The translations under genes were made by a program, and so were the position numbers. This document shows, piece by piece, positions 1 through 42,519 of a stretch of DNA of 42,519 nucleotides (within the stretch, counting starts at the first letter, position 1; the number at the start of each line of letters is the position of its first letter). Source of the DNA: Jimgerdemannia flammicorona. Its lineage: Eukaryota. The notes below the pieces were generated by a model, which saw nothing but the letters and a program-made list of their open reading frames with translations, was not told the DNA's origin and did no database searches. The stretch covers positions 1-42,519 of the forward strand of contig RBNJ01000088.1 in the NCBI GenBank assembly GCA_003990765.1. The letters are read 5' to 3'.

Positions 1-1020
1 CTTAGTATCAAAGTTGTCATTCTCAACCAATTGCAGTTGATATAATTGCAAACGTCACGCGGTACAAGGGTCTAGACCTCTATTTATACGAGTTTTATTA
101 TTATCATGAGATTCCAAATATACTGCCCCACACTTGCGTATTTGCTAGAGAACTTTATTTTATACACCTAATGTGATCAAATGTCTATGGTGGCAACAAA
201 CAATGCTCAATATTATATATACTGGCAGATCGAAACAAAGCTCTCAAGCTTGTATTTTTATCACTATCGTTTCCACGTGCTTCCCTAACACCAATCGATT
301 GGCTATCAGTATATACACATCAACCAATCACAATTTGACGCATAAAAATGTCGAGTCTAGCATTTTTATGCGTCAATCTTAAATTACACTTCCATGTAAA
401 ACTATTATAATCAGCCACTTTCAAAAATCGAGCATAATATACAATTTGAGTGCTTGGAACATATAAAGACCTATTATGATTATCGCACTCACTTACTATC
501 CAACATCTTTCTTTAAAGGCTGTCCATATTGCTTTTCGGTGATCCGAATTATCAAATCTAATATATATGCACCAATCACAATATAATTCGGAGGATTGGA
601 GAGTTCCACTGTAAGTAGAATAAATGCAATCTGAATTTGATGATGGTCATGGAAAGATGCATATGATTAATTCACCATAATTAGCTATTATTAAAATGTA
701 ATTAACTCACCATTCGAGATCCAATATATATTTGATGATGAATATTTGCGAATTGACACAGCATTATCTCCGCCTCCCCATCCCATGCCCTGCGCCCGCC
801 GTTAGAGAATTTCGGGTGATCCGAATTGTTGGTATCAAATTTAATACACAATTTGACGCATAAAAATATCGAGTCTGGCATTTTTATGCGTCAAATTGAT
901 ATGGATGCGAATTTTATTAACTATAAGAAAATACTCTTTGAATATGCTGGCAACAACTTCCTACTCCTTTCTTAATATCTTTAATTTATATATAATTAGA
1001 TACAAATAATCGCACTTAAA

Positions 1021-1670
1021 AATTGTGTTACCAAATCAATCACCTGATCGTGTGCCCATATAGTAATCGTGTGCCCAATATAAAATTTACAATAAGATCA
1101 TATGACCATTGCCAAATGCCTTTTACAAACCAAATAAATTTGACGCTAGACTAAGCGTTAAATCTTAATTATGTTGATATCGAAACTTACCTATTTCATA
1201 TTTGTTAAAGTATTTGTTGTACAGTTGCATCTCAAATATAAGCTGGAATCTCCAGTTTCAAACTAGATAACAAAGCTCTTAAGTATTGTACTAATATGAA
1301 AGAATCTGTGAGATTATTAATACGAGTTGAATTATTTAAACTTAAGTAATTCGAGCTTTGAATATGCAGTTGAAATTTATTCTAGCAAGAGTAATATGTA
1401 AGAGCTTTCTCTTAACTACACTGCATATTCCCAGGACTTTTTTGTTTATTGATTCTGAAGACTATCACTCACTTTACTTGAGTTTGTCTTAATATATGAC
1501 TTCAGTACATTATTATCTATCTCTAAGCCTTTAAACTTCCAATTTTCAATTCTGGCGGACAAAACGCATGGGGTAGATGGAATGGTCATGTGATTTTACT
1601 ATAAAATTTATATTGGGCGCACGATTATTTTATGGGCACACAACCAGACGATTATTTTTAGTCGCATGAT
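1021..1670. mobile_element. MITE-like module: ~90-bp imperfect inverted repeats around a non-coding core (copy 1)
   Basis: The left arm ~1021-1112 (acctgatcgtgtgcccata...gtgcccaatataaaattt...atgaccatt) is the approximate reverse complement of the right arm ~1579-1670. No target-site duplication or transposase was identified. Confidence 0.5.
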
Positions 1671-1908
1671 CCCAAATCAATATGATGCAATTATCGATCT
1701 ACCAGTATATGTAAAAGATGATATATTAGTTATTGCGAGCAATTCAAAAATTACGATATTTGATCACAATAATAACATCCGAATTCTAATAATTTTAGAA
1801 TGTGCTTTAAATATTCTATCCATTATTTTAAGATGGGGATAAAGTAAAAGCTAGATTGTTTACAGGAGACCATGTAAACTTGTTTTGCATAATATATCGC
1901 AAAGCAAT

Positions 1909-2052
1909 TTGACGCATAAAAATGCTAGACTCGACATTTTTATGCGTCAAATTTCAATAATCATGTGATAACATCATTAAACCAATCAGATATTAGCGCA
2001 TAAAAATGCTAGACTCGACATTTTTATGCGTCAAATTTTTTAATAATCATGT
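1909..2052. repeat. 84-bp-period tandem array of palindrome plus conserved linker
   Basis: Palindromes at 1909 and 1993 are separated by tttcaataatcatgtgataacatcattaaaccaatcagata. Confidence 0.9.
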
Positions 2053-2187: not shown

Positions 2188-2901
2188 TTATTGAAATATA
2201 CACTGTACTACTGTTGTCTGTTTTTTTCGACTATAAGGCCATTTCAAATCTCGTCGTGTTGGTAAGATCATCTTCCCACCCCCACATATCCGCACGGCAT
2301 TCGCAATCAAAGTCACCCTCCGGAGACTATCACCACTCCACCGTTTGTTGAATATATTCAAAGTCTTTTTTTGCGAGAGTGCTAGCATACCTTCAATGTC
2401 GCTATTTTGCACCCCAGATAATGATGGTTCGGGTGGGATATCTGCGAGCGGAATATTGATGATGTCAGAATATGATAATAAATTTGGTAGTAATAACCCA
2501 GCCTCCTCACCTGCGAGCGCTTGTGCAGTCAATTTAGCAATGGGTTTGGTGTATCCAATAATGACGTGGATGTGCTCATCGTTGAGAGGATCGGGGAAGC
2601 ACCTCTGTACTTTGAATAATACTGGTAGCTTTTCACCACACAATACATCGGCGATGGCAGAGTTGGGGTTGGCTTTTAATGTAGTGAGCACATCGTTTGG
2701 TGTATAAAGAGGTATATCGACTTTCCAAAGAGCAAGGTTTGTGATCACGATGTAGTCAAAACGTGGTTTCAACTTCTCTTTCATACGTTCTCTCAGATCG
2801 TCAATATTAGCACTTTGGTGAATCTTGACAGAAAAAACATGGTTGGAAGGTGGAGTGTCACCATGGACAAGACAGTTGAGCGTGATATTGTCGGTTGACA
2901 T
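2188..2901 (-). CDS. Crinkler (CRN) N-terminal ubiquitin-like domain protein, C-terminally truncated
   Basis: ITLNCLVHGD..HVFSVKI...IDDLRERMKEK...LALWKVDIP...HIHVII matches the fungal/oomycete CRN N-terminal domain. There is no recognisable full effector domain downstream. Confidence 0.85.
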   Translation of the reverse strand: MSTDNITLNCLVHGDTPPSNHVFSVKIHQSANIDDLRERMKEKLKPRFDYIVITNLALWKVDIPLYTPNDVLTTLKANPNSAIADVLCGEKLPVLFKVQRCFPDPLNDEHIHVIIGYTKPIAKLTAQALAGEEAGLLLPNLLSYSDIINIPLADIPPEPSLSGVQNSDIEGMLALSQKKTLNIFNKRWSGDSLRRVTLIANAVRICGGGKMILPTRRDLKWPYSRKKQTTVVQCIFQ

Positions 2902-3046: not shown

Positions 3047-4060
3047 TCATTCTCAACCAATCGCAGTTGATATAAATTGCGGTACAAGAGGGTCTAGACC
3101 TCTATTTATATATTACCCTTAGTTTTATTATTATCGCAAGGTTCCAAATAAATGTACATATACTGCCATCACCACCCCCTCCCCCTTCCCCGCCCCACAC
3201 TTGCGTATTTGCTAGAGAACTTTATTTTATACACCTAATGTGATCAAATGTCTATGGTGGCAACAAACAATGCTCAATATTATATATACTGGCAGATCGA
3301 AACAAAGCTCACAAGCTTGTATTTTTATCACTATCGTTTCCACGTGCTTCCCTAACACCAACCGATTGGCTATCAGTATAATATATACGTTAACCAATCA
3401 CAATTTGACGCATAAAAATGTCGAGTCTAGCATTTTTATGCGTCAATCGTAATTATGTAGTCCGATTACACTTCCATGTAAAATATTCAAAATTTGAGTG
3501 CTTGTTATTAAATGGAACATATCTTATAAAGATCTATTATATTTCTCTTATGATTATTGCACTCACTTACTATCCAACCTCTTTCTTATAAATTGTATGC
3601 TTTTCGGGTGATCCGAATTATCAAATCTAATATATATATGCACTAATCACAATATAATTTGGATATTACATGGGTCCATCAGGATGAAGTAGAAGAAATA
3701 CAATCTGATAATAAATTTGATGATGGTCATGGAGTTGACACTGAAGATGCATGTCCATATGATTAATTCACCATTATACTACTCAATTAGCTATTATATT
3801 AAGGTAATTAACTCACCATTGTACTGCCGAGATCAAATATTTTAATAATATGCATTTTTGATGGTGAATATTTGCGAATTGACACCACATTATCTTAGAG
3901 CATTTGCTAGAATTTCGGGTGATCCGAATTACTGGTATCAAATATACCTGCAGAGTTTGAGCTAAATTTACCTCGTGATAGTAAGATCATTTGTGCTGGA
4001 ACTAAATTTAGCACATAAAAATATCGAGTCTGGCATTTTTATGTATCAAATTATTTATCA
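3047..4060. repeat. Copy 2 (partial) of the ~2-kb repeat unit
   Basis: Near-identical to ~16-900, including palindromes at 3405 and 4008. Confidence 0.9.
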
Positions 4061-4134: not shown

Positions 4135-4955
4135 ATGAATCACCAACTCATCGCCATCTGTTCTAATACAGATAGCAGTGCATTTACAGAGCCATAGGCA
4201 TTAGCTATATGCGAAGCTTTCAGTGCTGAAACTTCTGGAATTGTCATGAGCATCAGACAAAATATATCCTTTGGTGCCAGAATTTCCGACTTGCCTAGTG
4301 CAGTATTTGTAATGCATCTATGGTCATGGCTTCACGAATCAGACTTAGCCAGTATTGCAACACAAAATTTGTATATAGTGTGGCAAGATAACCAATCATT
4401 TCATCGATATCAGCAGACCATTGCACATGAAAATGATCAAAATTTGCAGTGTCATCACAGCCACGCGTCCCCCAGCGCTGGTCCCTCGACAATATACACA
4501 ACAGTGATTTGTGCAGACGGTATTTCTGCTCCTTGTATCTGCCATCGATAATGCTGCTGTCGAGATCGCTGACAGTTTTCCGCTCGATAACGATATCAAG
4601 GACAAATTCGTGGCCATCTGAACTCTTGGCAACAAACATCATGTCCCCCGAGCGAGTTTTCGCATGGATGTTACATCTGTGTAAGTTGTCTATCAGAAAG
4701 TTCTTTTATAATCAATGTGATTTCATAAGGCGGATCGGATTCAATCAATGTATCCCATTGGTGGAACATCTCGGGGGATGTGGTGGTGGTGGTGATAGTT
4801 GTTTTGGTGGCGAATTACACAATGGGACATATGACAATTCTTTCCTCAGCCATACTGCTATCTTTGGCCCAATACCATTGTTTGTTTGTTTGAAATAGGA
4901 TTTTATTCCCACCCCCGTTCCACGGTTACATCTCCAATATCTCGGTGTATATCAT
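4135..4955 (-). pseudogene. mus81: Frameshifted Mus81-like ERCC4 structure-specific endonuclease
   Basis: N-terminal HhH NGIGPKIAVWLRKEL (~4835-4880). ERCC4 core GDMMFVAK..EFVLDIVIERKTVSDLDSSIIDGRYKEQKYRL (~4510-4650). C-terminal HhH KDIFCLMLMTIPEVSALKASHIANAY (~4190-4272). The pieces are in different frames with stops between them. Confidence 0.85.
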
Positions 4956-6959: not shown

Positions 6960-8652
6960 TTTATAACATATACGAGTTTTATTATTATCCGGCTAAATGT
7001 ACATATACTGCCATTGCCACTCCACCCCCCTCCCCCCCCTCCTCTCCATCTGTTAGAGTGTTTGCTAGAGAACTTATTCATTTGAGGTCATCCAGTCTTC
7101 TGGTTGTGTGTCCAGTATAAATTTCAGGTGATCTGAATTATTCATATGTGCGCCCAATAGTCACATGATTGTGCGCCCAAGATTCGGGGAGTTCCGCTGT
7201 TGAAAGTATATCCATGAATTTGATGATGGTCATGGAGTAGACGCTGGAGATGCATGATTAATTCACTTGATTAGCTATTATTAAAGAGTATTAGGGTAAT
7301 TAACCCACTATTATACTACTCGAGATATAATACGTATTGAATAATTGCATGAAATTGACACAGCATCCCCGTCCAATCCTACGCACAATTTCAGGTGATC
7401 CAAATTACTGGTATCAAATATACGTGCATCAAATTATATGGATGTTGAGTTTATTAACCATTTTAACATAAATGTAATAAATCTTTGAATAGCTCCAACA
7501 TACTGGCAACAACCTCTCATCCTTTTCTTAATATCTTTAATTTATAAATCCTCTTAATCTACAGGAAGCAAAATGTTATTATATAATGACAACCTTCTAA
7601 ACTTGTAGGGTATTCTTTGAATTTGATTCTAATAATTGTGCCATATATTGATTTAAAAATTGTGCGACTAAAGTTAATCACCTGATCGTGTGCCCATATT
7701 ATAAATTGTGTGCCCAATATAAATTTTACATTAAGATCATATGACCATTCCATCAGCTTGCCAAATATCTTATTACAAACCAAATAAATTGATATCGAAA
7801 CTTACCAATATTGCGCCTATTTTATTTTATTAGAGAATTTTGTACAGTTGCATCTCCAATATAAGCTGGAATTGCTAGATAACAAAGCTCTCAAGTATTG
7901 TACTAAATGAAAGAATCTGTAAGAGTGTTAATACGAGTTGAATTATTTAAACTTAAGTAATTCGAGCTTTGAATATGCAGTTGAAATTTATTCTAGCAAG
8001 AGTAATATGTAAAAGCTTTCTCTTAACTACATTGCCTATTCCCAGGACTTTTTGTTTATTGATTCTGAAGACTCACACTCACTTTACTTGAATTTGTCTT
8101 AATATATGACTTCAGTATATTATTATCTATCTCTAAGCCTTTGAACTTCTAAAACTTAGTAATTTTCAATTCTGGCAGACAGGTTGATGAAATGGTCATG
8201 CGATCTTACTGTAAAACTTATATTGGGCGCACGATTATTTTATGGGCACACAATCAGATGATTATTTTTAGTCACATAATTTCAAATATAATGGTTGAGC
8301 ATTATTAGTACTTAATATGTAAAAAAATTGCAACATTTGATCATGATAATAAAATCTGCATTCTAATAATAGAATGTGCTTTAAATATTCTATCCAATAT
8401 TATAAGCTAGATTGTTTACAGGAGACCATGTAAACTTGTTTTGCAAAGTAATTTGACGCATAAAAATGCTAGACTCGACATTTTTATGCGTCAAATTTCA
8501 ATAATCATGTGATAATATCATTAAACCAATCAGATATTGACGCATAAAAATGCTAGACTCGACATTTTTATGCGTCAAATTTCAATAACCATGTGATAAC
8601 ATCATCGAACCAATCAAATATTAACGCATAAAAATGTTGAGTCTAGCGTCAA
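6960..8652. repeat. Copy 3 of the ~2-kb repeat unit, ending in a three-palindrome 84-bp array (8453, 8537, 8621)
   Basis: Colinear with ~600-2050. Confidence 0.88.
7658..8280. mobile_element. MITE-like inverted-repeat module (copy 2)
   Basis: Arms 7658-7751 and 8189-8280 are approximate reverse complements. The core is nearly identical to ~1180-1560. Confidence 0.5.
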
Positions 8653-10455
8653 TCTTAATTATACACTTCATCGGCCACTTTCAAAAATTGAGCATAATAT
8701 ATAATTTGAGTGCTTGCTAATAAGATATTATAAAGACCTATTATATTTCTCTTATGATTATCGCACTCACTTACTATCCAACCTCTTATAAATTGTATAC
8801 TTTTCGAGTGATCCGAATTATAATTGGAAAGTATCATGATGAAGTAGCAATCTGAATTTGATGATGGTTGTGGAAATTATTAAAAGGTAATTAACTCACC
8901 ATTGTACTACAAATATTTAATAATACGTATTTGATGGTGAATATTTGTGCATTATATCCGCCTCCCCACCCCCTGCCCCGTACCCGCCATTAGAAATTAC
9001 TGATATCAATTTGACGCATAAAAATGTCGAGTCTGGCATGCGTCAAATCATTAACTATGAAAATACTCTTTGAATAGCCCCCCAGCATGCTGGCAACAAC
9101 CTCCTACCCCTTTCTTAAATATATTTAATCCCCAAATCTACAAGAAGCTATATCAAAGAAAAGTTATTATATGATGGAAACCTTGTAGGGTATTCTTTAT
9201 GTACTTGGCGTAATTTAAAAATTGTATTACCAAATCAGTCACCTGATCGTGTGCCCATATAATAATCGTGTGCCCAATATAAAATTTACAATAAGATCAT
9301 ATGACCATTGCCAAATGCCTTTACAAAATTTGACGCTTAAAAATGCTAGACTCGACATTTTTAAGCGTTAAATCTTAATTACGTCACATCGATTGAAACT
9401 TGCCAACACAATTATTCACCAATATCGCCAAATATAATATTTGGATCTAATATGAAGACAATGTTCTCCAGAATACTTTATTTATCTGTAAGAATCTGTG
9501 AGGAGTGTTGATACACGTTGAATTATTTAAACTTAAGTAATCCAAGCTTCGAATACTATAATGCAGTTGAAATTTATTCTTGGGAGATTGTTATAAGCGA
9601 GAGTAAAATCATTTGGTACATATCTTTTGTGCAAATTCAATTTATATTGGGCACACGGTTTTACAATACAATCAGGTGATCAAACATAGATTAAATAATA
9701 GCCAAAATTTAATTGTGTAGAGATAACTCGATATGCTCAGAACTTGGGTTTTGTAATATTATTAGCAATTTTCTAGTTTATGTGAGAATAGCACTAAGTA
9801 AAATCATTTATTTCAAGCAATATCATAATTGTACTACATAATTCAGATTTAACATATAAAATGGCATATATTCATAAAATAACTATCAAGCTAGTATTTG
9901 AAGGAGTGTATGTATCGATAAGAATTAGTAATTTTTAATTCTGGCATATAGACAGAAAGATATAAGCCAAACGCTGGAATGGTCATGTGATCTTATTGTA
10001 AAATGTATATTGGGCCCATGATTGTTAAATCGATGCAATATAATGTTGAGAATTATTAGTACTTGATATGTAAAGAATGATATATTGCCAGCAATTACAT
10101 CTGATCACCATAATAAAATTGGTATTTTAATAATTGAACATTTAGAACATGCTTTAATTTTAATATTCTATCCAGTATTTCAAGATGAAGATAAAGTAAA
10201 AGCCAAATGGTTTACAGGAGACCATGCACGACATATTGTAAAGAGACGCATAAAAATGCTAGACTCGACATTTTTATGCGCAAATTTCAATAATCATGTG
10301 ATAACATCATTGAACCAATAAAATATTAACGCATAAAAATGTCGAGTCTAGCATTTTTATGCGTCAAATTTCAATAATCATGTGATAACATCATTGAACC
10401 AATAAAATATTAACGCATAAAAATGTCGAGTCTAGCATTTTTATGCGTCAAATTA
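8653..10455. repeat. Copy 4 of the ~2-kb repeat unit, ending in a three-palindrome array (10245, 10326, 10410)
   Basis: Begins with sequence matching 377-560. Contains the left IR arm at ~9219-9312 and right-arm copies at ~9640-9680 and ~9976-10025. Confidence 0.85.
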
Positions 10456-10921
10456 TCCAGCCTGGCGATAGTCAACAAGTACACCGATTCAAAAAATTGA
10501 TTGAGATCATAAGTGAGAACAACTTATTGCGTGATTTTATTGTGGGCACATGATTGAGGGATATGTGCACCAATAGTATGGTAAAATTTGACGCATAAAA
10601 ATGTCGAGTCTAGCATTTTTATGCGTCAAATTTCAACATGCATGACATTTTTTTTTTATATCTGACTCAAATTTCATTGTAAAATACGAAATCTTTATTA
10701 TATGCTGTTCAGAGCTGGATAATTATCGAGTTAGATAAATGTGCATTGTCGCTAATGATGGATTGTTCAATGCTATAAAATTCTATCGTTATTGACAAAT
10801 AGACTCTAATTCATTAGCTGAACATTCTTTCTTGCCATTTCGTCAAGCACCAATAAATCGTGTATAACATGCAAATCACAATTACATGTTCCAAACCAAA
10901 TAAAGTCTGATTTCTCACACA

Positions 10922-12460
10922 ATGCTCAAAAATATCGCCACCATGTTCGAACGCTTTGAAGATAACGATGTTGTACACCACATTGCTCACATTACAACTG
11001 GTATCTATTTCGCAGCAAAGGTCAATTATCAAGGAACGGCGCAAATATATATTATGAAAGGTGTGGTCAGCATTGATGACTACGATCCTAAACAATGCAC
11101 ATGGAACTATTGTCCACACAGAGGGGGTATAGAATATGGAGAATCTATGATTTCACGTAAGCCCGATCCATCAGATGAATTTAAGTTTGGATTTGAAACC
11201 ACAGAGTCGGGAACCCGGATTGTTGTTGCGGGAAACGACAATATCGAGCACAGATTTGCACACGATGAATTTGCTCCAATGTGGATGATTATCATCTGCG
11301 ATAACAATACCAATATTCGGCTAATCGATGTGGTTGCACACATTCCAGAGAATAACTCGCGTGTTGTCAGTCTGTATGTTAGACCTATCGAATATGTCGC
11401 AACGTCCCAGGATGGCTGTAGCTGTGTATGTATCCAGAATCAGACGCTGATTGTATGGAATACGAGTAGCAAATTGCGGATTGCACATTCAACTCAGGTA
11501 CCGGAGTGCGTGGGGGGTCGGGTCAGCATGGCGATTTCGGATGTTGGAAGTGACGGATTGCCCAATTGGATCGCGTTGAGCTGCGACAACACGATAACTA
11601 TTTTTTCGGGTTATGAACGTGGTGAATATACCAGAACACAGTCGGAGTTGTTGGGCCTGGTATATTGTATCAATGGAAACACTTTAATCATTGATGATTT
11701 CAGTGCACTGCATGTATCCATGCGTTCCTCTATATGGAAATTCAAGACGGTTCCTGTACCGAACAGCGAGAGATATCCTCTCCGACCATTAAAATTCAAC
11801 AAGATTCTGTGTGCATTGGGGGTAGTGGATGTGGATTCAGGCGAAATTAAACCACAGCTTGATTTTCGTTCTCGCGCTCACTATAAAGGCGATACCGATG
11901 CTGATGGACGAATTGTGATATACAACGATGATGCATTACACTACTACTATTCTAAGGATAGTGGACGGCATTTTATTCGTTCAGAGCTGTTGGAGAGATT
12001 CACCCTGTCTGATCTTCCAATGACAGTTATCGGAGTGGAAATTGTCATGTTGGATGGCGATAAATTTGCATTGACTATCGATGCCAATAACGATTTTGTG
12101 TGGTTTGGCTTGCTCAATCTGCGCACAAAAGCGCCAATGCAATATGTCAAGATGCCACATAACTATAGGGCTGAATTTAGACGTGCTGTTGCACACATTA
12201 TCGAGCACAACCAAATTCGCTTTATAATTCCAATGAAGGCTGATATTGGTGTGTGGAATGTTAATATTCCCGAATTCAAAATTCCTGAATTCGAAATCCG
12301 CGAATTCAAATGTGCCCAATTCAAAATTTCCGAATTCGAAATCCGCGAATTCCACAACCAACGCTTCACTTCATATTTGCTACATCCTGTATTCATTAGT
12401 TTATATGGAATTGCTATATGGTATATTTTGCACAATTTTGTATACGTGGTAAATACATAA
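10922..12460 (+). CDS. Hypothetical beta-strand-rich (propeller-like) protein with C-terminal transmembrane anchor
   Basis: 512-aa ORF with many short hydrophobic strand patterns and a hydrophobic C-terminus (LLHPVFISLYGIAIWYIL). The fold is a guess. Confidence 0.75.
   Translation: MLKNIATMFERFEDNDVVHHIAHITTGIYFAAKVNYQGTAQIYIMKGVVSIDDYDPKQCTWNYCPHRGGIEYGESMISRKPDPSDEFKFGFETTESGTRIVVAGNDNIEHRFAHDEFAPMWMIIICDNNTNIRLIDVVAHIPENNSRVVSLYVRPIEYVATSQDGCSCVCIQNQTLIVWNTSSKLRIAHSTQVPECVGGRVSMAISDVGSDGLPNWIALSCDNTITIFSGYERGEYTRTQSELLGLVYCINGNTLIIDDFSALHVSMRSSIWKFKTVPVPNSERYPLRPLKFNKILCALGVVDVDSGEIKPQLDFRSRAHYKGDTDADGRIVIYNDDALHYYYSKDSGRHFIRSELLERFTLSDLPMTVIGVEIVMLDGDKFALTIDANNDFVWFGLLNLRTKAPMQYVKMPHNYRAEFRRAVAHIIEHNQIRFIIPMKADIGVWNVNIPEFKIPEFEIREFKCAQFKISEFEIREFHNQRFTSYLLHPVFISLYGIAIWYILHNFVYVVNT
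12266..12352 (+). repeat. In-frame 15-bp minisatellite encoding (I/C)xEF(K/E) pentapeptides
   Basis: About six units, most centred on GAATTC, with a higher-order 45-bp duplication. Confidence 0.85.
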
Positions 12461-12535
12461 AAAGTAATTTTAACACATAAATGCTAGACTCAACATTTTT
12501 ATGAATTAAAATATTATGCAAACGATTTATTGCTG

Positions 12536-17696: not shown

Positions 17697-17869
17697 TATT
17701 AAATTTGGCGCATAAAAATGTCGAGTCTAGCATTTTTATGCGTCAAATTTTTGATTATGTAATACAATTGCGGTAATCATTTGACCGTGTGCCCATATTG
17801 TAAAAATCGTGTGCCCAATATATTGAAATTGTCTGACCGTATAGCATCGATTTAAAAACGTTAGACCTT

Positions 17870-18298: not shown

Positions 18299-18719
18299 TA
18301 AACTATCAAAATTTGTTTGCAGACCCTAATATAAATGTACAATTGCGTCTTGCTTGTGAATACAAACAAATTCTTGCCACATCCATCCATCTGATACCCC
18401 ACCTGTACAGCACGCTGAGCCGTCCATGGTTACTGAGGATGAACCAAGGATGGCAACGTCCACCACTACTACGCTTCCACCGATCGATAATTTTACAAAA
18501 TTGGATTTACGCGTCCAATGCAATCTGAGCATACCGAACAGATATAAAAGTTATCAAAACCAACTTTAATGCCCGTGTGTACCAATGCACTCGATTGACA
18601 TGTGACCTTAAAATTTGACGCATAAAAATGTCGAGTCTAGCATTTTTATGCGTCAAATTGTTATTGGATAGGCGTTAAAACTATAAAAAATGTCTTTTTT
18701 TTTTATTACTATTTCCAAA

Positions 18720-20737: not shown

Positions 20738-20890
20738 CGTGTGGTAATGTTGGATGCTTTGTATTGGAAATGGCGGTTTTATATAATAAGTGTAATTTTG
20801 AGTTTAGCCGTCGGATCGTGTGCCCATATTGTAAAAAATCGTGTGCCCAATATAAATTGCTAAGCTATTTTTAAGTCGAATTCAACATTT

Positions 20891-21100
20891 TTAAGCGTTA
20901 AAATGATTACACTTCTTTTTTTTAGTTTTGCATCCCCGACACACCGTTCCAGGCTTCCGCCGCTTGCCAATATTCGTGGTGGCATGGGCAGTACATTTTT
21001 GCCTACGTTTACAAGCAGTACATTCATCTCTTTGCACCGTAACAATTTTGCACGTATAGTCACCCCCTTTGGGTAGTATTAGCCGATTTTTTTGTGACAT
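20891..21100 (-). CDS. Small basic protein with two half-Zn2Cys6-like Cys3His motifs
   Basis: CTACKRRQKCTAH and CRGCKTKKKKCNH, similar to the N-terminus of the adjacent gene. Confidence 0.65.
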   Translation of the reverse strand: MSQKNRLILPKGGDYTCKIVTVQRDECTACKRRQKCTAHATTNIGKRRKPGTVCRGCKTKKKKCNHFNA

Positions 21101-22281: not shown

Positions 22282-22570
22282 ATATGTATCAACACGCCTT
22301 TACTTTGTAAATATGTTAGATTTCATACTTGATATGGACAAATAGTATAGCTATTACATTCTATGTATTGGAATTTTTTTACATAACTGACTATTTTGAA
22401 CCAAGTGTTATTATTTCTACACACGCTAGGCTGATTATTGTAAACACGTGATGAGCGATTTATGCGAATTTTGACGCATAAAAATGTCGAACTCGACATT
22501 TTTATGCGTCAAAATGTGATTGGTAGTTGTATTATATTGTCGGAGTATAGATTTATACTATTCTGGAACG

Positions 22571-26379: not shown

Positions 26380-26463
26380 TTATACCCCCTACCTCCCTTT
26401 TTTTTTCAGGGATGTATAATATAAAAAAAAAAGTATGAAATCGGAAAATAACGGCATACCAAA

Positions 26464-27669: not shown

Positions 27670-27806
27670 CATAATTTATACAATAGAAACTGTAATTACA
27701 CTAATAGCGATTTTCTAAAATTGACGCATAAAAATGTCGAGTTCGACTTTTTTTATGCGTCAAATTGATAATTCGGATCTCCCGAAATTTATATTGGGCA
27801 CACGGT

Positions 27807-29103: not shown

Positions 29104-29422
29104 TTGACGCTTAAAAATGTCGAGTCTAGCATTTTTAAGCGTCAATTAAATAATCGTCTATTACAGCACGTGTATTACGTAATCACAATTGGCGCTTAAA
29201 AATGTCGAGTCTAGCATTTTTATGCGTCGAATTTGCACTGTTCAACGACAGAATGACAATTTTCAATAATAAACTATTAATTCACGAGATGGGTTTTTGG
29301 CTGAGATTACATGGTGCATAAAATGGCGGGTCTAGAATTAACGTTATCCAGTTGACTTCATGTTTAACGAGTTTATAAATTTGACGCATAAAAATGCTAG
29401 ACTCGACATTTTTAAGCGTCAA
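29104..29422. repeat. Intergenic cluster of three palindromes plus one degenerate copy
   Basis: Copies at 29104, 29189, ~29312 (degenerate) and 29381, between divergent genes. Confidence 0.9.
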
Positions 29423-29501
29423 ATATGGATGCTAGACTAAAATGGGTAGCATAAAATAGCGAGGGATGGGGGGGAGGGTAGCTGTGTGTGGGCATCAAAC
29501 C

Positions 29502-31726: not shown

Positions 31727-33197
31727 TCACTGTCTACATTCAGAACACATGCATTCCAATCCAAATATGGTTTTCAATTCATGCTTCCGGTTCAAATACG
31801 ATTTTCCGGGATTGACGTAGGCGATGGTAAGCTCCTCGCCTGCATTTATGGCTCGCTTAGTCTTCAAATAATTGCCTGAGCGACAGCAATTTGGTTTGCA
31901 CGAATGGTTGATCCACGAAATCGTTTGGTATAATTGCATACCAGTCTGTGTTTCGCCGTCGAAAATGCTAAATCCATTGACACTTTTATAGATTTAGTAA
32001 ATGTGTAATAATATATATCAGATGCAGAATAAATACTTACATCACAATCCGGCATAGCGTTTCATATATGTGATAGTCGAAATGTAGCACGAATTTCATA
32101 GTAACGTCAAATACATCGCAGGTAATTTGATAATAGTCACTAATGTATGGAATAACCACATACGATTTGCTATTCATGTCGGACGGGCTCCAAGGTCGAA
32201 GGGGCTGTATGCACGGAAGCTCCAGAACAGAGACTTTCATTACTATAGACATTGCGAATAATTTGACAATCATCATTGGAAACAGGTATGATTCGGCGCA
32301 GACGGCCGCAAACGATCTTTTAAACACTCTCTCACGATCACCACATAATATTATGTGGTATAGTGTGTTAGCTTCTACTCGGCATCGGTCAGAGCAATAT
32401 GCGATTTGACATTCCTGACATCTGACAATGTGGATGCAAATAGTACCACAATGCTCGCACACATTTCTAGATCGTGTGTTGACAACTACCGACGGAGTTT
32501 CAGTTATTACAATATTTCCCGCACGGATTGGCGTCTTTGCGAAAATTCCTGCCTGCAAGCCATTTCTCTGTATCGAGAATTTAACTTCCAGTGCATATGT
32601 CTGCACCATGTCATTATATCGTCTTTGTATATCGGGCAATCCTCTACTATCCGACGTATCCCATGGATATCGCCCATTGATCATGATTCGGTCAACGAAT
32701 TTTATCGATCTATCATATGCAGCAACGTCCTCGTCCGATCTAAATAGCTGATTGCATACAATATCACATTGTCGTTGGATGTTCTGCACCCTCTCTACAA
32801 ACCCATTTTCATCGTATGGAATTTTCAGCACCATGTCCAATACCGATTTACACATTGTAATATACTGGCTCTTGAACCGACATGCGAATAAGGTGTAGGC
32901 AAACGTATATACGATCTCACAGTACAGCTGTTGTGCAGCCTCAAACGGAAATACTTTCAATGTTACCGCGCTGATAAATTTACAACCATCTGCATCGCAA
33001 ACCCGTTTTATGAGGTGATATGCTCGGGTAATATCGTATATGGCGTGGTCTGGATATCCCATAAAAATGAACATAACTGCGCGATCGTACCAGGTGGCGG
33101 GGTTGTTGTGGTAGAGTAGGGTGCGGTTTGTTAAAAGATCAAATTGATCTTTGGGTGACAGAATTGGCGTGGCCATTGATAGAGAGGCATTTTCCAT
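31727..33197 (-). CDS. SMYD-type SET-MYND lysine methyltransferase with N-terminal TPR-like segment, two exons (33197-32041, 31982-31727; 470 aa)
   Basis: GIFAKTPIRAGNIVITE (SET-N), CEHC..CQEC..YCSDRC...H...C (MYND), and INHSCKPN, GEELTIAY and post-SET CMCSEC in exon 2. Splicing restores the frame: CRIVI-VNGFSI. Confidence 0.9.
31983..32040 (-). other. 58-bp spliceosomal intron in the SET gene
   Basis: GTAAGT donor (32040-32035), ACTAA branch-like motif (~31998-31994) and AG acceptor (31984-31983). Removal joins the two ORFs in frame. Confidence 0.88.
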
Positions 33198-35735: not shown

Positions 35736-35893
35736 GGTGTGTTTGAGTTTTTTTTTCGATTCAAAAAATACGGTCGAATAAATATGTGAAGAATACTCAA
35801 ATGAGGGATATGTGCACCAATAGCATTATAAAATTTAATGCATAAAAATGCTAGACTCGACATTTTTATGCGTCGAATTTTGATTGGTCTCTC

Positions 35894-36473: not shown

Positions 36474-36664
36474 ACGATTGCATATTTAAATGTGCTATCA
36501 AATGGTTTGTACAACATAAAATTATGTTTGACAACAATAAATTATTTGGTAATCAGATTTCGACGCATAAAAATGTCGAGTCTAGCATTTTTATGCGTCA
36601 AATTTATGGTTAAAATAGTTCGTCTAAATACTTGATTATTGGGTCTGTTTACTTCTCAATCATG

Positions 36665-37123: not shown

Positions 37124-37200
37124 GCTGGCGATACAATATACAATACTAATAAAAATATTGGTCTCGCCTAAAAATATATTGATTCGGTTAAAGTCAATCA

Positions 37201-37435
37201 CATGATTGTGTGCCCAAAATTATTGTGTGCCCAATATAAAACTATTGTATTATCATAATATATTGATGCAGTAAGAATCAATCACCTGATCGTGTGCCCA
37301 TATAATAATCGTGTGCCCAACATAAAACTATTGTATTATTCGTCGTTGTAAATTTCAATATATTGATTAAGTAAGAATCGCATGATTGTGCGCCCCAAAT
37401 ATATCGTGTGCCCAACATAAAACGATTGTATTATT
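37201..37435. repeat. Three tandem copies of the paired GTGCCC(A)ATATAAA motif
   Basis: (gat)tgtgtgccca...tgtgtgcccaa(t/c)ataaaac(t/g)attgtattat at ~37203, ~37287 and ~37383. Confidence 0.88.
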
Positions 37436-37473
37436 CAGTATATACATGAGTCATGTTACTAAAGTAATATTAT

Positions 37474-38806: not shown

Positions 38807-40384
38807 TTACACTATCCTAGTATGGTTTCGAACTGACACACACGTTTGATTTCCTTGGAATGCAATGCCAAGAAGATGCACCTTCGCAACACTGTCATGC
38901 AGATCAACCACTTCTTGATCAGACACATTCTCCCCCAAAGTAACACGTATATAGAATTGTGTGTCTTGTGTTTTAGCACTAATGTGGCACTGCTCCGCTG
39001 TGTATGTGCCTGTAACCGCATAACCTCTACGACGCAGATCGGAATCTACGCCAAAACAGAATGCGTGATAATATATGTCCATCCACATTTCGGGCAACCA
39101 TCCGCACACATGTTCGATGGTGATGGTGCCCAATTTCCTGTGGAATGCCTCGATTTCGCTCGCGACGAGCATATCAAGCAGAGCCTCGTACAAGGATGGT
39201 TCGCTCAAGTCCGGAGCCACACAGCTAACCCACTGCATGTACACGTGTGCATTTGGAATCTCGAATTGGCCCTCGCGCATGGTGATGTAGCCAGCATGAT
39301 ACAGAAACGTCCACACTGTCGCATCGTCTCGCTTGCAAAGCCGGTCAAATTCAATGCTGTCTCTGCGGTCTAATTGCAGACGCCCCCTGTTAAGCAGCAC
39401 TATTATTTTTGCGCTGTCGATGTGTGCAATAATCTGTCTTATCGTGTCCGCAAAACCGTTCTTGTTGTATTGTGGACGGTGCAGCTCGACACCCCCGCAC
39501 CAGTACCCTCCTCCGCGCGCATCACCTTTATCTCTTTCGGTAAATCCAAACCGGGTTGAAAAATCGCCATGCGCCATTGAATGGATACCGAAGTCGTTGC
39601 AGCCGGAAAATAGCACGTGTGTCTCCACTGGGAGAATGCCGACCATGAAAGCTTTGTGAAGATATGGGTTATCTCCAAGCAACGACGAATACACGCGTGT
39701 CAGAATTCCAATCATAGTGCGGTAGTATGCCCCATTAAACTGCTGTGAAATTGGGACATCAACCCTGTCAAATGCCGGAGTCTCGTATTCATCAACCAAC
39801 ACAACACACTTGGCACCGTGGAAGCGATGCAGATACATGGATAGTTTTTGCAATGCCGAATCGTATTCCTGGTACGAAGTGTCCTTCTTCTCAATCACTG
39901 TAAATTCATCTTTTTCCGCCCCAGATAAACACTCAATAACATACCGGTGTTTTCGAAATATCTCGCCAATAACGTCTCGAAGTTTATTCAACGATCCTTC
40001 CCATGTACATTTGGTAACATGGCGGAGATTTAGGTGTATAATCGGATAGCGTCCAAATTCAGTATCAAGTAATGTCGGATGATGGGTTCCGATACACAAT
40101 CGTTCAAACAATTTTCTGCGATTTTTTTTTTCAATAATGCTTTCATCGTGAACAAGCTCGAAAAACGTTCGTAACATCAATAAATTGGTTGTTTTTCCAA
40201 ATCCGTGTGGACGTAGTACAAGAGTAACAGTGCTATCGGTCTGACACAAGTCGTGAATAAGCATTGTTTTGTCCACATACCATGGTTTTTGAGCCATTTG
40301 CATGAATTCTTCTGTTTCTATAGATGTGTTCGATCGTTTGACTCTAGGGGAGGTTCTGGTTGGCAATCTTCGGTTTGGCGGCAT
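38807..40384 (-). CDS. AAA-ATPase-like (PF09820-type) protein with eroded C-terminal region
   Basis: YVDKT..I..L, Walker A-like RPHGFGKTTNL and Walker B VLVDEYE, followed by GFTE and WTFLYHAGY...IPN. Confidence 0.85.
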   Translation of the reverse strand: MPPNRRLPTRTSPRVKRSNTSIETEEFMQMAQKPWYVDKTMLIHDLCQTDSTVTLVLRPHGFGKTTNLLMLRTFFELVHDESIIEKKNRRKLFERLCIGTHHPTLLDTEFGRYPIIHLNLRHVTKCTWEGSLNKLRDVIGEIFRKHRYVIECLSGAEKDEFTVIEKKDTSYQEYDSALQKLSMYLHRFHGAKCVVLVDEYETPAFDRVDVPISQQFNGAYYRTMIGILTRVYSSLLGDNPYLHKAFMVGILPVETHVLFSGCNDFGIHSMAHGDFSTRFGFTERDKGDARGGGYWCGGVELHRPQYNKNGFADTIRQIIAHIDSAKIIVLLNRGRLQLDRRDSIEFDRLCKRDDATVWTFLYHAGYITMREGQFEIPNAHVYMQWVSCVAPDLSEPSLYEALLDMLVASEIEAFHRKLGTITIEHVCGWLPEMWMDIYYHAFCFGVDSDLRRRGYAVTGTYTAEQCHISAKTQDTQFYIRVTLGENVSDQEVVDLHDSVAKVHLLGIAFQGNQTCVSVRNHTRIV

Positions 40385-41780
40385 TGTTTACAAGAAACAC
40401 CGAGTTTGAGAAATGATCGTAGGATACCACAAATTCAGAGTGAGTGTGAATATATATCGGACCTGTGATGCGAAGTGTTTCAATGTTTGGCCAGTATGTC
40501 GACCAATTTTCAATATTTAATGTGTGGGCACCGAACCATTCAACAAATCGGATTTGATCACATTCCCGAAGACTGAGTTCAGATAGCAGATTGGGCTGTC
40601 CGATAAGCGTGACATGTGTCAACGTTGATTTAATAGAGTAGATGAAATCTGCAAGGTCGGAGTCCCATCGTCCAAATTCTGGAAATCGTATCAACACGTT
40701 GCACATGTTTGTAAGATTTTTGAATAGATGAGCTCGAAAGTAATATATGTCTATTTGCATGTGTGGTATTAAATCTGCAAGCTTTAATAAACTATCGCGT
40801 TGTGCAATGGTTTGAATTTCATTGGTGTACACAATTCTTATCTGTCTGTGGTAATGGAGCCCAAATTTCATTGATTCGCGTATTAAATCTACAAATCGCT
40901 CGCTACACATGCTTATACAGCGGATATATCTATCCGTCAAATGGCCGATAGAGTTGTTCCAATCTACACATACCATAGCCATCGATAACAGATCTTCGAC
41001 AGAAAACTGACGCCCATTTACGATCGATTTGTATACTTCCATTATAATTTCCGGAGGTAATTTCTGCTGCACCCCTTGCCGCACTGGCTGTTGTACACAT
41101 TGCTGTGTTAAACGTTCGATCAACACACACATGTCGTGATTCTCACGATTGATTGCGTACTTGTGTGGCGATAAGCCATCGTTGTCGGTCTCGGTCATAT
41201 GTGCTCCATTGCAATAAAGCCATTTCACCATGTGTAGATCTCCGTTCATTACAGCGTAGTGCAGCGGTGTTTGTCTACGATTGTTTTTTCCATTTATATC
41301 TGCACCACCAGCAAGTAGAACTCGGGCTAGTTGATGGTGTCGGTGGAAGGATGCATAGTGGAGTGGCGTTACTCCATCATCATCGCGGATATCAGCATCG
41401 ATTTTGAGTATTTGACATAGATCTGATCGACTTGTAAGACTGTTGCTCCTGTACAGCCTCCACTCCATTGCCAACGTCTCGCCAGCCAACATGTGTAAGA
41501 TGGATGTATTGTATTCGTATCTGATATGGACATTTGCCCCTTTATCAATAAGGTATTTAGCAATGTCAAAATGGCCATATTCTACTGCTGTTCGCAAATA
41601 CAGCGTTGCGTCTACAATATACTCATCCAAAACATTTTTTAAAATATTGATATAGCCTAGTTTCACCACAAATTCAATGGTTTCATTTGACATATTTAAC
41701 TGATCGACTAATACTGCCACATCACATTCATTGTTTTCTACGATCGCATCAAATAGTCGATCGGCAATGGTACTGTCCAT
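40344..41780 (-). CDS. Ankyrin-repeat plus internal F-box / LRR-like protein
   Basis: GVTPLHYA and QTPLHYAV, then LPPEIIMEVY...MAMVCVDWN F-box. Confidence 0.88.
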   Translation of the reverse strand: MDSTIADRLFDAIVENNECDVAVLVDQLNMSNETIEFVVKLGYINILKNVLDEYIVDATLYLRTAVEYGHFDIAKYLIDKGANVHIRYEYNTSILHMLAGETLAMEWRLYRSNSLTSRSDLCQILKIDADIRDDDGVTPLHYASFHRHHQLARVLLAGGADINGKNNRRQTPLHYAVMNGDLHMVKWLYCNGAHMTETDNDGLSPHKYAINRENHDMCVLIERLTQQCVQQPVRQGVQQKLPPEIIMEVYKSIVNGRQFSVEDLLSMAMVCVDWNNSIGHLTDRYIRCISMCSERFVDLIRESMKFGLHYHRQIRIVYTNEIQTIAQRDSLLKLADLIPHMQIDIYYFRAHLFKNLTNMCNVLIRFPEFGRWDSDLADFIYSIKSTLTHVTLIGQPNLLSELSLRECDQIRFVEWFGAHTLNIENWSTYWPNIETLRITGPIYIHTHSEFVVSYDHFSNSVFLVNNAAKPKIANQNLP

Positions 41781-41830
41781 GTTTATTATAGTATGATTTT
41801 CTTGATTCAGAATTTTGTCTGTATTACGTT

Positions 41831-42519
41831 TTGACGCTTAAAAATGCTAGACTCGACATTTTTATGCGCCGAATTTTGATTGGTGTTAGCCATTATCGAA
41901 TCAAAAATTGATGCGTCGAATTTTCTTGATTCAACAAGTTTCAGTACAATAAACGAGAAAAGAACTTTTTGTCCAGATCGCTGCTGTATTACATGATCAG
42001 GAATTGGCGCATAAAAATGCTAGACTCGACATTTTTATGCGTTAATATTTTATTGGTTCAATGATGTTATCACATGATTATTGAAATTTGGCGCATAAAA
42101 ATGCTAGACTCGACATTTTTATGCGTCGAATTATAATTGGTGTTAGCCATTATCGAATCAAAAATTGATGCGTCGAATTTTCTTGATTCAACAAGTTTCA
42201 GTACAATAAACGAGAAAAGAACTTTTTGTCCAGATCGCTGCTGTATTACGTGATCAGGAATTGGCGCATAAAAATGCTAGACTCGACATTTTTATGCGTT
42301 AATATTTTATTGGTTCAATGATGTTATCACATGATTATTGAAATTTGGCGCATAAAAATGCTAGACTCGACATTTTTATGCGTCGAATTATAATTGGTGT
42401 TAGCCATTATCGAATCAAAAATTGATGCGTCGAATTTTCTTGATTCAACAAGTTTCAGTACAATAAACGAGAAAAGAACTTTTTGTCCAGATCGCTGCTG
42501 TATTACATGATCAGGAATT
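41831..42519. repeat. 257-bp tandem repeat array (~2.7 copies, running off the window end), two palindromes per unit
   Basis: tggtgttagcc recurs at 41881, 42138 and 42395. Palindromes lie at 41831/42088/42345 and 42004/42261. Confidence 0.97.

Follow-up and report, generated by a model that had tools for sequence, protein, structure and literature searches.

Short palindromic repeats recurrently fill the spacers of large DNA viruses and organelles. The hrs of baculoviruses are dispersed in non-coding DNA with one to several direct-repeat units per site, and each unit is centred on an imperfect palindrome whose centre is conserved. Their function has been shown experimentally, as they bind IE-1 and act as enhancers and origins, and hr-like arrays are also present in nudiviruses, ascoviruses and white spot syndrome virus. 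Mimiviridae follow a 'hairpin rule', by which a gene-specific palindrome lies just downstream of most genes. According to the description of Pithovirus repeats by Rigou et al. 2023 (PMC10664404), two families of palindromic repeats, M1 and M2, occur together in non-coding spacers, either singly or in clusters. They are about 140 nt long with 47-54-bp inverted ends and a putative TA duplication, no transposase was found for them in that description, and satellite-like change in copy number and a recombination-based, non-transpositional spread are discussed there (PMC10664404). The giant-virus MITEs referred to in the same source include the Pandoravirus 'submariner' family (PMC4495683; cited in PMC10664404).

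Here, we analysed a contig of 42,519 bp, the whole of which is the window. Judged by its sequence, it is a Jimgerdemannia-like contig (Endogonales, soil fungus), and its proteins are 89-94% identical to J. flammicorona proteins. Jimgerdemannia genomes are given as ~240 Mb with >77% repeats in a review (PMC10386755). The gene block at 10922-41780 is 87% coding, and the left 10.9 kb is gene-poor. The genes are almost without introns, with a spliceosomal-type intron in one of them, and include many ORFans as well as ankyrin, F-box and BTB genes. No viral hallmark gene was found on the contig, which looks giant-virus-like and whose viral nature is putative.

The spacers of this contig contain a 42-bp palindrome. 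Compared by description, it is like M1 and M2 of Pithovirus, as far as these are described in the source above, in being intergenic and clustered, with a second family nearby and no transposase found. Unlike them, it has a 42-bp unit (84 bp in arrays), shows no duplication, is better conserved in the centre than at the ends, and is carried by a fungal contig of putative viral nature. The initial annotation had pointed to a likeness to baculovirus hrs. This stands for the layout, since a palindrome within a direct repeat, dispersal in non-coding DNA and a conserved centre are common to both, but it does not go beyond architecture; the present family is known from sequence alone, no IE-1-like protein is known for it, and its replicon is only putatively viral. 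Fungal mitochondrial hairpin clusters and bacterial REP/BIME elements (PMC3733652) are likewise very short, non-coding spacer hairpins found as filled and empty sites and in either orientation. These are, however, GC-rich and organellar or bacterial, whereas the palindrome here is AT-rich, has a conserved asymmetric centre and lies in intron-bearing DNA.

Copies, arms and core of the palindrome

When up to two mismatches were allowed (<=2), the 16-nt arm TTGACGCATAAAAATG gave 56 matches on both strands, compared with 0.08 expected from shuffles, and 0 of 100 shuffles reached 56. Pairing of the arms yielded 26 intact palindromes of 42-43 bp, the first at 335-376 and the last at 42345-42386. Together with five degraded copies (at about 4008, 8621, 9011, 12470 and 20862) and one shortened copy (1139-1173), they agree with the about 30 copies initially counted. 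The copies and the sites of a second repeat family, built of a doubled CGTGTGCCCA motif (the doublet repeat), are as follows; the strand is given where one is assigned.

335..376, intact copy; perfect arms, core TCGAGTCTAG; inside a ~540-bp segment duplicated at 3192-3733
853..894, intact copy; one change each in arm and core
1139..1173, shortened copy; 10 bp deleted from each arm in mirrored positions, 13-nt tail; 35 bp missing from the paralogous site 7788/7789
1909..2034, two palindromes 84 bp apart, core CTAGACTCGA in both
3405..3446, intact copy; paralogue of the copy at 335
4008..4049, degraded copy
8453..8652, 84-bp array; two intact units and a third without 10 bp of its right arm; core flipped in the third
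9011..9046, degraded copy; right arm without 6 bp
9330..9371, intact copy within a copy of a ~660-bp inverted-end element; mirrored A/T arm variant
10243..10451, 84-bp array of three units; core CTAGACTCGA in the first unit and TCGAGTCTAG in the other two
10588..10629, intact copy; lies 293 bp ahead of ORF 10922-12460
12470..12509, degraded copy; convergent spacer of 75 bp
17705..17746, intact copy; divergent spacer, with the ATG of ORF 14991-17696 at a distance of 9 bp
18615..18656, intact copy; precedes the RNase III-like ORF by 34 bp
20862..20901, degraded copy; a doublet repeat is 11 bp away; the small ORF 20891-21100 takes its stop codon from this copy
22471..22512, copy with variant core TCGAACTCGA; almost perfect palindrome of 23+23 nt around a 2-nt centre
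27721..27763, 43-bp variant; convergent spacer, doublet repeat 30 bp away
29104..29230, pair of units with a spacing of 85 bp; divergent spacer; here a relative from a soil metagenome has an extra 162-bp tandem copy
29381..29422, intact copy; 44 bp upstream of ORF 29466-30098
35835..35876, intact copy; divergent spacer, ATG at 35894 lying 18 bp away
36560..36601, intact copy in a convergent spacer
41831..42386, five palindromes; 257-bp super-unit (spacings 173 + 84 bp); the array enters the contig end
17780..17819, minus strand, example of the second repeat family with the doubled CGTGTGCCCA motif
1047-1079, 7685-7718, 9246-9278, 20815-20851, 27793-27826 and 37205-37416, other sites of the second family

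The geometry is 16-10-16 nt (arm, core, arm), with inverted-repeat arms of 16-20 nt. The arms had been called perfect, which is true of just 9 of the 26 intact copies. The 10-nt core is TCGAGTCTAG in 23 of 26 when orientation is disregarded. It had also been described as directional, but its two orientations on the plus strand are found 13:13, it flips within arrays, and it has no direction relative to anything nearby.

Conservation is highest at the centre. The outer 4 nt of the arms carry 25 changes in 208 positions and the inner 12 nt only 11 in 624 (Fisher P = 1e-8), and the inner 34 bp, in which the asymmetric core and the CpGs lie, are about 7 times less variable than the arm ends. In this AT-rich family, the non-palindromic core varies as little as the inner arms, and each arm keeps its two CpGs. 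The borders are fuzzy, and conservation tapers gradually into the flanks. Stable hairpins were predicted when four copies were folded as DNA (-19 to -24 kcal/mol; z-scores between -8.5 and -10 in three of them). Since 32 arm changes affect one arm and only 2 are mirrored, however, stem pairing is not kept up by covariation. The arms of neighbouring copies are no more alike than those of distant copies (identity 0.933 vs 0.932), which argues against concerted local evolution. No target-site duplication and no direct repeat were found in the flanks of the 26 copies, and the AAT/ATT flanks of the palindromes are inverted, not direct.

Among the contigs of IMG/VR and of JGI metagenomes and among prokaryote genomes, the motif had no match, and a literature search returned one chance match only (a glioma paper), in agreement with the view that the sequence is not a described family. 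The palindrome is a genuine, non-chance and strictly intergenic family that matches nothing described.

Position relative to genes

None of the 31 copies (26 intact and 5 degraded) overlaps an ATG-started ORF of at least 100 aa, and reading through a copy gives only spurious ORFs of 50-62 aa. The copies thus lie outside credible CDSs as the initial annotation had stated, and random fall inside CDSs was not seen. Because the gene block is 87% coding, the probability that all 10 independent loci in it are non-coding is P ~2e-9. The loci are dispersed through the block as claimed, while the gaps between them, measured for intact copies only, are 0.7-7.1 kb instead of 1-6 kb. Of the 24 block spacers, 15 have no palindrome; those occupied are 3 of the 7 convergent, 3 of the 7 divergent and 3 of the 10 tandem ones. 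Relative to the gene closest to it, the core points in either direction. Since divergent, convergent and tandem spacers are all occupied, the palindromes are neither promoters nor terminators.

The product of ORF 21129-21914 may be a DNA-binding protein of the zinc-cluster type. In the PDB it matches AlcR best (E = 0.026), and the alignment includes all six cysteines; a second zinc-cluster-like motif adjoins the ORF; Pfam called no zinc-cluster domain in the protein, and its structure model, with a pLDDT of 33.6, is too low for use. The AflR sites of the aflatoxin cluster are a precedent for co-regulation, and the palindromes could in the same way be binding sites of a fungal cluster-specific transcription factor, such as this in-block zinc-cluster-like protein, which would co-regulate the gene block. 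The presence of this ORF and its adjoining motif, the palindromes located 9-51 bp upstream of five ATGs and the variant core, which reads TCG-N4-CGA, are consistent with such sites. However, three loci lie between convergent genes, the many empty spacers would be left without a site, near-identity over 34-42 bp is far beyond the need of a factor, and many copies are located in the gene-poor left region and in tandem arrays, so that we consider this reading very unlikely.

An RNA-level signal, that is, a transcript 3'-end or processing hairpin perhaps cut by the RNase III-like enzyme encoded at 18690-19538, would account for the stable predicted hairpins and for the four loci 10-64 bp downstream of stop codons, and the enzyme gene is at hand. 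This is extremely unlikely, since copies lie at only about 6 of the roughly 26 gene 3' ends, no strong hairpins were found at the remaining gene 3' ends, divergent spacers hold as many copies, and the arms show no compensatory change. In addition, the alignment of the RNase III-like protein shows Asn in place of one catalytic Asp. Unlike the gene-unique palindromes of the Mimiviridae hairpin rule, one sequence is found at every site, at few gene 3' ends and in divergent spacers equally.

Arrays and other signs of dynamic DNA

The copies had been described as single or in arrays of 84-bp period. Tandem Repeats Finder indeed detected 84-bp arrays at 8453-8636, 10246-10454 and 42002-42425 as well as a 257-bp super-unit reaching the contig end, and there are palindrome pairs with spacings of 84 bp (1909/1993) and 85 bp (29104/29189). 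The usual layout is a 42-bp palindrome within an 84-bp unit; a site has 1-3 such units, and the array at the contig end is longer. When the orientation of the 42-bp array spacer was fixed, the core of the unit before it was CTAGACTCGA in 4 and TCGAGTCTAG in 3 cases, that of the unit after it was CTAGACTCGA in 2 and TCGAGTCTAG in 5, and opposite cores flanked two array spacers. These mixed orientations indicate that the centre inverts, or is inserted, independently of its flanks.

This bears directly on the loxP/dif reading of the initial annotation, by which loxP/dif/attC-type sites of a site-specific recombinase would shuffle or resolve gene cassettes. The palindrome is like loxP, FRT and dif in having inverted arms around a non-palindromic spacer, here of 16-10-16 nt, and four single genes are bracketed by copies. 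However, no tyrosine or serine recombinase, integrase, resolvase or transposase was found among 36 contig ORFs searched with Pfam and 16 searched with PHROGs, so that the enzyme sought on the contig is missing from this set. Recombinase-binding elements have arms of 11-13 bp, and those here are longer. Unlike loxP, FRT and dif, the family has a core that flips, with no fixed orientation relative to its flanks, and about 30 copies with arrays and decayed members, which is atypical. We could not uphold this reading, which is the least probable of all.

The contig contains three paralogous copies of the ~660-bp inverted-end element, and a clean 35-bp indel (palindrome and tail) distinguishes them: the site is filled at 1139-1173 and 9330 and empty at 7788/7789, with a junction ambiguity of just 2 nt. 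This comparison is between paralogues within the contig, and the single filled/empty site could represent a deletion instead of an insertion. Decay of palindrome type is visible as mirrored deletions in the 1139 copy and one-arm deletions in the 8621 and 9011 copies; in total, 6 of the 32 copies are decaying, and some lie inside other repeats of the gene-poor left 10.9 kb.

The doubled CGTGTGCCCA motif has 21 matches, compared with 0.41 expected. It lies 11-60 bp from palindromes at five loci, without regular alternation, forms the inverted ends of the 660-bp element, builds an 84-bp array of its own and supplies the 3' end of ORF 27807-28982. A soil-metagenome relative, 95-99% identical, shows a 162-bp tandem gain at 29086-29247, and its contigs have the palindrome in common followed by different flanks. 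The depth of its palindrome contig is 11, compared with 2-3.7 for unique contigs; depth is not copy number, and taken at face value this is a rough hint that the family is not a high-copy genome-wide repeat. The filled/empty site, the mirrored deletions, the variation in array length and the linked second family show that this DNA is dynamic.

Some of these features would also be expected of a cut-and-paste MITE mobilised by a DDE transposase encoded elsewhere in the fungal genome. The palindrome is small, non-coding and entirely inverted repeat, it belongs to a repeat-rich fungal lineage, and it has one filled/empty paralogous site and a bona fide inverted-end element alongside. Like the MITEs of giant viruses and fungi, it is small inverted-repeat DNA gathering between genes. 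A transposase-driven element is nevertheless disfavoured, because the arm ends are the least conserved part, the opposite of what is expected, and because target-site duplications are absent and the borders are fuzzy. MITEs are typically larger than the 42-66 bp seen here. No partner transposon was found on the contig, and the core flips in arrays remain unexplained unless each array junction was hit separately. Based on these observations, we regard a MITE as unlikely.

Possible selfish propagation or docking sites

We favour the reading, at a probability of roughly 0.43, that the palindrome is a selfish repeat, similar in kind to M1/M2 of Pithovirus and propagated through hairpins and recombination. 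Lineage-specific, short interspersed repeats capable of hairpin or cruciform formation would have colonised the spacers of a gene-dense contig, which may belong to a Jimgerdemannia-like fungus or to a large DNA element resident in it. They would be non-autonomous selfish DNA, akin to M1/M2, to the MITE-like hairpins of giant viruses and to mitochondrial hairpin clusters. The replication and recombination machinery of the cell itself, acting at the palindrome centre, may seed, homogenise and rearrange the copies, by template switching or arm-to-arm copying within a copy, by gene conversion between copies and by unequal exchange in arrays, and a dedicated recombinase or transposase would be unnecessary. 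First, the absence of positional logic relative to genes is in favour of this reading, as are the core flips, the filled/empty site, the palindrome-type decay, the tandem gain and differing flanks in the soil relative, and the lack of covariation in the stem. Second, Jimgerdemannia host genomes are rich in repeats according to the review mentioned above (PMC10386755). Third, by analogy, the pairing of the palindrome with a second family resembles the M1-M2 pairing described for pithoviruses (PMC10664404). On the other hand, the conserved core and CpGs fit protein recognition at least as well as neutral selfish DNA.

The main alternative, which we put tentatively, is that the palindromes are an hr-like cis element, in which position- and orientation-independent docking sites for a sequence-specific dimer would serve a large DNA element as enhancer, origin or genome-organising site. 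The dispersed, non-coding 84-bp direct-repeat units with their 42-bp palindromes, 1-3 per site, and the low variability of the inner 34 bp would suit such an element, and the sites lie beside 5' and 3' gene ends alike, as enhancers and origins can. Since the 84-bp period corresponds to ~8 helical turns, the array units would face one side of the helix. A candidate protein is encoded at 21129-21914, and the depth in the soil relative weakly suggests a low copy number confined to the element. Gal4-type zinc-cluster proteins recognise CGG-type half-sites, however, and the palindrome has none, while the lack of a Pfam domain call also speaks against this candidate. The decaying copies, the copies inside other repeats, the failure to find a hallmark gene and the spliceosomal-type intron are further points against docking sites. 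A more specific version is rather doubtful: a giant-virus-like element, integrated or episomal, in Endogonales would carry the palindromes as helically phased hr-type modules that dock an element-encoded dimer, perhaps the zinc-cluster-like protein, and act as origins and/or enhancers, with the centre selected yet freely flipping.

The family is unusually small, conserved at its centre, flipping in its core and free of target duplication, a pattern that speaks less for a transposase than for a bound protein or for propagation by hairpins and recombination. The palindromes mark a gene-dense, almost intron-free and ORFan-rich block in an unculturable fungus related to mycorrhizal fungi, and this block may be the relic or resident of a large DNA virus. 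If the block is viral, the motif would be a cheap probe with which Endogonales assemblies and soil metagenomes could be searched for the remainder of the element. If the hr-type modules are real, hr-like systems would for the first time extend beyond the large DNA viruses of arthropods and algae, and the modules would provide a handle on DNA-virus biology in mycorrhizal fungi.

Anatomy and placement of the palindrome family

The window makes up a complete contig of 42,519 bp, on which its own RNase III-like protein is recorded in the database. In the window, the 16-nt arm TTGACGCATAAAAATG was matched 56 times with at most two mismatches, whereas 0.08 matches were expected from shuffled sequences. 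When arms facing each other were paired into copies, we obtained 26 intact palindromes of 42-43 bp, the first at 335-376 and the last at 42345-42386, confirming that the dispersed family proposed in the initial annotation is real. Five degraded palindromes are located at about 4008, 8621, 9011, 12470 and 20862, and a sixth non-intact copy (1139-1173) is strongly shortened. Arm-to-arm complementarity is perfect in 9 of the 26 intact copies, and the 10-nt core between the arms reads TCGAGTCTAG in 23 of 26 when orientation is ignored. As a degenerate pattern, the family can be written ACGC[AT]TAAAAATG-N10-CATTTTTA[AT]GCGT. Tandem Repeats Finder revealed 84-bp arrays, in which each unit is a palindrome plus a 42-bp spacer, at 8453-8636, 10246-10454 and 42002-42425, together with a 257-bp super-unit reaching the window end, and a centre-to-centre spacing of 83-85 bp was observed in seven instances.

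When each copy was split into two half-sites, the consensus was ccAAT.aaAAT-TTGACGCATAAAAATG. Arm positions 5-16 contain 11 changes in 624 positions, seven of which are a single A/T polymorphism, while the outer four positions contain 25 changes in 208 (Fisher P = 1e-8), and conservation is thus weighted towards the centre. The CpGs of the arm are essentially invariant (CpG observed/expected in the gene-dense block, 10922-41780, is 1.11), and the AAT flank and the CCAAT box 7-11 nt outward are retained in part only. The strongly conserved inner 34 bp including the asymmetric core, with weakly conserved ends, and the 84-bp phasing of about eight helical turns would be best explained by a cis element bound by a protein, comparable to the baculovirus hrs, a reading that we regard as possible if somewhat doubtful. 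Among the copies, 32 one-arm changes stand against 2 mirrored changes; the changes are uncompensated, and therefore stem pairing as such is not the maintained feature. When four copies were folded as single-stranded DNA, three gave -19 to -24 kcal/mol with z-scores of -8.5 to -10 and the fourth gave -11.5 kcal/mol (z = -3.3). That the family acts as an RNA hairpin is highly improbable.

All 31 mapped copies are clear of ATG-started ORFs of at least 100 aa. Since the block is 87% coding, the location of ten independent loci all in non-coding DNA has a probability of about 2e-9, and the earlier statement that the palindromes lie outside credible CDSs holds. In the block, copies are found in three of the seven convergent spacers, three of the seven divergent ones and three of the ten tandem ones, and 15 of the 24 spacers carry none. 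A start codon follows five copies at a distance of 9-51 bp, and four loci come 10-64 bp after stop codons. Apart from this family, no strong short-range inverted repeat was found in the block, including at the remaining gene 3' ends. This spacer distribution and the bare 3' ends indicate that the palindrome is neither a general promoter nor a general terminator or hairpin signal: a promoter is ruled out because convergent spacers carry copies too, and a terminator because divergent spacers do. A site for a transcription factor of the gene cluster, to which the copies upstream of ATGs could be assigned, has quite a small chance of being correct. Finally, the internal copies are too many for a telomere or concatemer junction.

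Repeat dynamics and core orientation

A second dispersed repeat, the doubled CGTGTGCCCA motif, was matched 21 times against 0.41 expected. It forms the inverted ends, of about 80 bp, of a MITE-like element of about 660 bp present in three copies, and also occurs as solo pieces in gene spacers.

Copies of the MITE-like element and further sites of the doubled motif
1016-1677, MITE-like element of about 660 bp
7653-8287, MITE-like element of about 660 bp
9215-9660, copy of the MITE-like element
17780-17819, doubled CGTGTGCCCA motif
20815-20851, doubled CGTGTGCCCA motif
27793-27826, doubled CGTGTGCCCA motif
37173-37436, doubled CGTGTGCCCA motif

The doubled motif forms its own 84-bp array (37173-37339), provides the final codons and stop codon of ORF 27807-28982, and at five loci is separated from palindromes by 11-60 bp. 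C-rich CCCCACCCC-type tracts, a third intergenic motif, recur in spacers at 23768-23981, 25091-25221, 26380-26463 and about 770-800.

The three paralogues of the MITE-like element differ by a clean 35-bp indel, consisting of a palindrome and a 13-nt tail. The filled state is seen at 1139-1173 and at 9330 and the empty state between 7788 and 7789, with a junction ambiguity of 2 nt. Compared with the 9330 copy (9330-9371), the 1139 copy lacks 10 bp from each arm, at mirrored positions, and retains the core, implying that one arm served as template for the other. The 8621 and 9011 copies carry a deletion in one arm. No direct repeat was found at the palindrome borders, and these missing target duplications are again best explained by the hr-like element; that the family is itself a classical MITE seems unlikely.

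The initial annotation regarded the core as directional and the palindrome as a possible loxP/dif-type recombination site. The + strand reads TCGAG... at the core of 13 copies and CTAGA... at that of the other 13. With all seven 42-bp array spacers aligned to the same orientation, the preceding unit carried the core CTAGACTCGA four times and TCGAGTCTAG three times, and the following unit carried them two and five times, respectively; two of the spacers, 8579-8620 and 10284-10325, are each flanked by cores of opposite orientation. The core likewise points in either direction with respect to the nearest gene. Template switching or arm-arm recombination may invert the centre within its own arms, or each unit may have arisen independently in random orientation. 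Under both explanations the core orientation is free, and the main argument for a loxP/dif-type site is gone. In addition, searches of 36 ORFs by Pfam and 16 by PHROGs revealed no recombinase, resolvase or transposase on the contig, and such a site is now scarcely credible.

Two readings survive, the hr-like element and a selfish repeat. We tentatively favour, at a probability of roughly 0.43, a selfish repeat propagated through hairpins and recombination, of the kind of the Pithovirus M1/M2 repeats. First, this reading explains the absence of a positional rule. Second, it explains the decayed copies and their nesting in other repeats. Third, it explains the filled and empty site and the mirrored deletions. 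Finally, it explains the variation of the arrays and the free orientation of the core. The M1/M2 repeats are likewise palindromic and intergenic, are paired with a second family and have no known transposase (PMC10664404), and their multiplication by recombination is discussed by Rigou et al. (PMC10664404). The selfish-repeat and hr-like readings are not mutually exclusive. Centre-weighted conservation would also result from conversion aimed at the centre and initiated by a nuclease specific for structure or sequence.

Genes and affinity of the carrier DNA

The AAA-ATPase-like ORF 38807-40384 is 94% identical to a protein of the Endogonales fungus Jimgerdemannia flammicorona, and the next-best among the matches listed show 22-31% identity, the named ones being bacterial. 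The RNase III-like ORF 18690-19538 (+) is 89% identical in J. flammicorona, with one further match (E = 9e-4); close relatives of both ORFs were thus found in this species only. The RNase III-like protein is very divergent, with a weak C-terminal dsRBD-like region, and keeps the E..GD signature, with Asn at the aligned bacterial second catalytic Asp. No homologue was found for ORF 12536-13951 (-), an ORFan, and ORF 10922-12460, with 2 weak matches only, was counted as another. No relatives of the RNase III-like and VIT-VWA ORFs were found in IMG/VR viral contigs, and in the PHROGs scan of 16 ORFs just one was matched, weakly and to a family of unknown function. Pfam domains were assigned in 13 of 27 long ORFs: four ankyrin, three F-box, BTB, Crinkler-N, RNase III, VIT-VWA, PTPS, AAA-ATPase-like and a weak MYND. 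The Crinkler N-terminal (ubiquitin-like header) ORF, 2188-2901 (-), with E = 1e-16, lies in the repeat-rich left part. By eye, ORFs 12536-13951 (-) and 22571-23767 (-) have F-box-like N-termini, with no significant Pfam match; with ORFs 25222, 26464 and 27807, the F-box genes would number five in 17 kb. The sequence TATAAAAA lies 8-44 nt upstream of seven ATGs (13951(-), 14052, 18690, 22018, 23982, 26464 and 30826(-)), accounting for 7 of its 11 occurrences outside palindromes; this A-rich box is promoter-proximal, and the leaders are very short. Rfam gave no match and the tRNA scan no gene in the window.

A canonical 73-nt GTAAGT...TAG intron at 31968-32040 (-), the only convincing candidate in about 27 genes, splits a SET-plus-MYND (SMYD-like) gene, 31727-33197 (-), and its removal fuses the MYND ORF and a SET C-terminal ORF in frame. 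A remnant of a MUS81-type ERCC4 structure-specific nuclease at 4298-4705 (-) (Pfam 9e-10; human MUS81 structure 5e-10), its frame broken mid-way, adjoins a degraded palindrome in the repeat-rich left part. The neighbouring ORFs 21129-21914 (-) and 20891-21100 (-) contain the pattern C-x2-C-x6-C-x16/17-C-x2-C-x6-C, like fungal Zn2Cys6 DNA-binding domains. For ORF 21129-21914 the best PDB match is AlcR (E = 0.026, on the cysteine pattern), Pfam did not call a zinc-cluster domain, and the predicted structure has a mean pLDDT of 33.6, too low for use. The small ORF 20891-21100 has its stop codon within a degraded palindrome.

The gene-dense, nearly intron-free and ORFan-rich style with repeat-protein genes looks like that of a giant virus, but no viral hallmark gene was found on the contig, and the intron, the MUS81-type remnant and the zinc-cluster pattern argue against a free virus or bacterium. 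A bacterial endosymbiont was rejected in view of the spliceosomal-type intron, the upstream sequences, in which no Shine-Dalgarno-like leader was seen, and the fungal-type genes. For these reasons the carrier is described here as a Jimgerdemannia-like contig that may form part of a resident large DNA element. Giant-virus fossils have been reported from several fungal phyla (Gong et al. 2020, PMC7017919); by term search, the main text of that paper mentions neither Endogonales nor Jimgerdemannia, and a literature search for Jimgerdemannia with 'giant virus' or 'Nucleocytoviricota' found no paper. A review gives a genome size of about 240 Mb and a repeat content of more than 77% for Jimgerdemannia, the sequenced material being field-collected fruiting bodies (PMC10386755).

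Occurrence beyond the window and meaning

Exact and degenerate scans for the palindrome gave no match in IMG/VR viral contigs or prokaryote genomes, and the 28 loci from the JGI metagenome scan were all other palindromes. One of these chance finds is another dispersed family, an unrelated 32-bp perfect palindrome, GCATAAAAATG-AAATTAATTT-CATTTTTATGC, found in 3-5 copies on each of several metagenome contigs with a GC content of about 38-44% (e.g. Ga0307951_1000087, Ga0307960_1000072 and Ga0307964_1001102). As a letter string in the literature, the palindrome retrieved one paper only, a glioma study, by chance. The sequence family is thus new with respect to the collections and literature searched, in agreement with the initial annotation. 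When 12 kb of the block was compared with the phage collection, no match was found.

Among the matches listed, the sole sequencing run came from soil-metagenome DNA, with 5% of words in common, and no RNA run appeared. From this run, 26 short low-depth contigs corresponded to the window; they are 95-99% identical to the block, and no orthologous spacer was readable across a palindrome. One contig has an additional 162-bp tandem copy at 29086-29247, and others join the palindrome to unlike flanks. A palindrome contig had a depth of 11 compared with 2-3.7 for unique contigs, depth not being copy number. This is a weak hint against a high-copy repeat spread over the whole genome; such a low copy number would be best explained by the hr-like element.

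The kind of repeat is already known from pithovirus repeats, viral MITE-like hairpins and hrs. Three aspects of the present family are unusual. Its unit is very small and conserved at the centre, with a core that flips; its arms show mirrored deletions; and its carrier is a block, possibly a resident large DNA element, in a mycorrhiza-related fungus.
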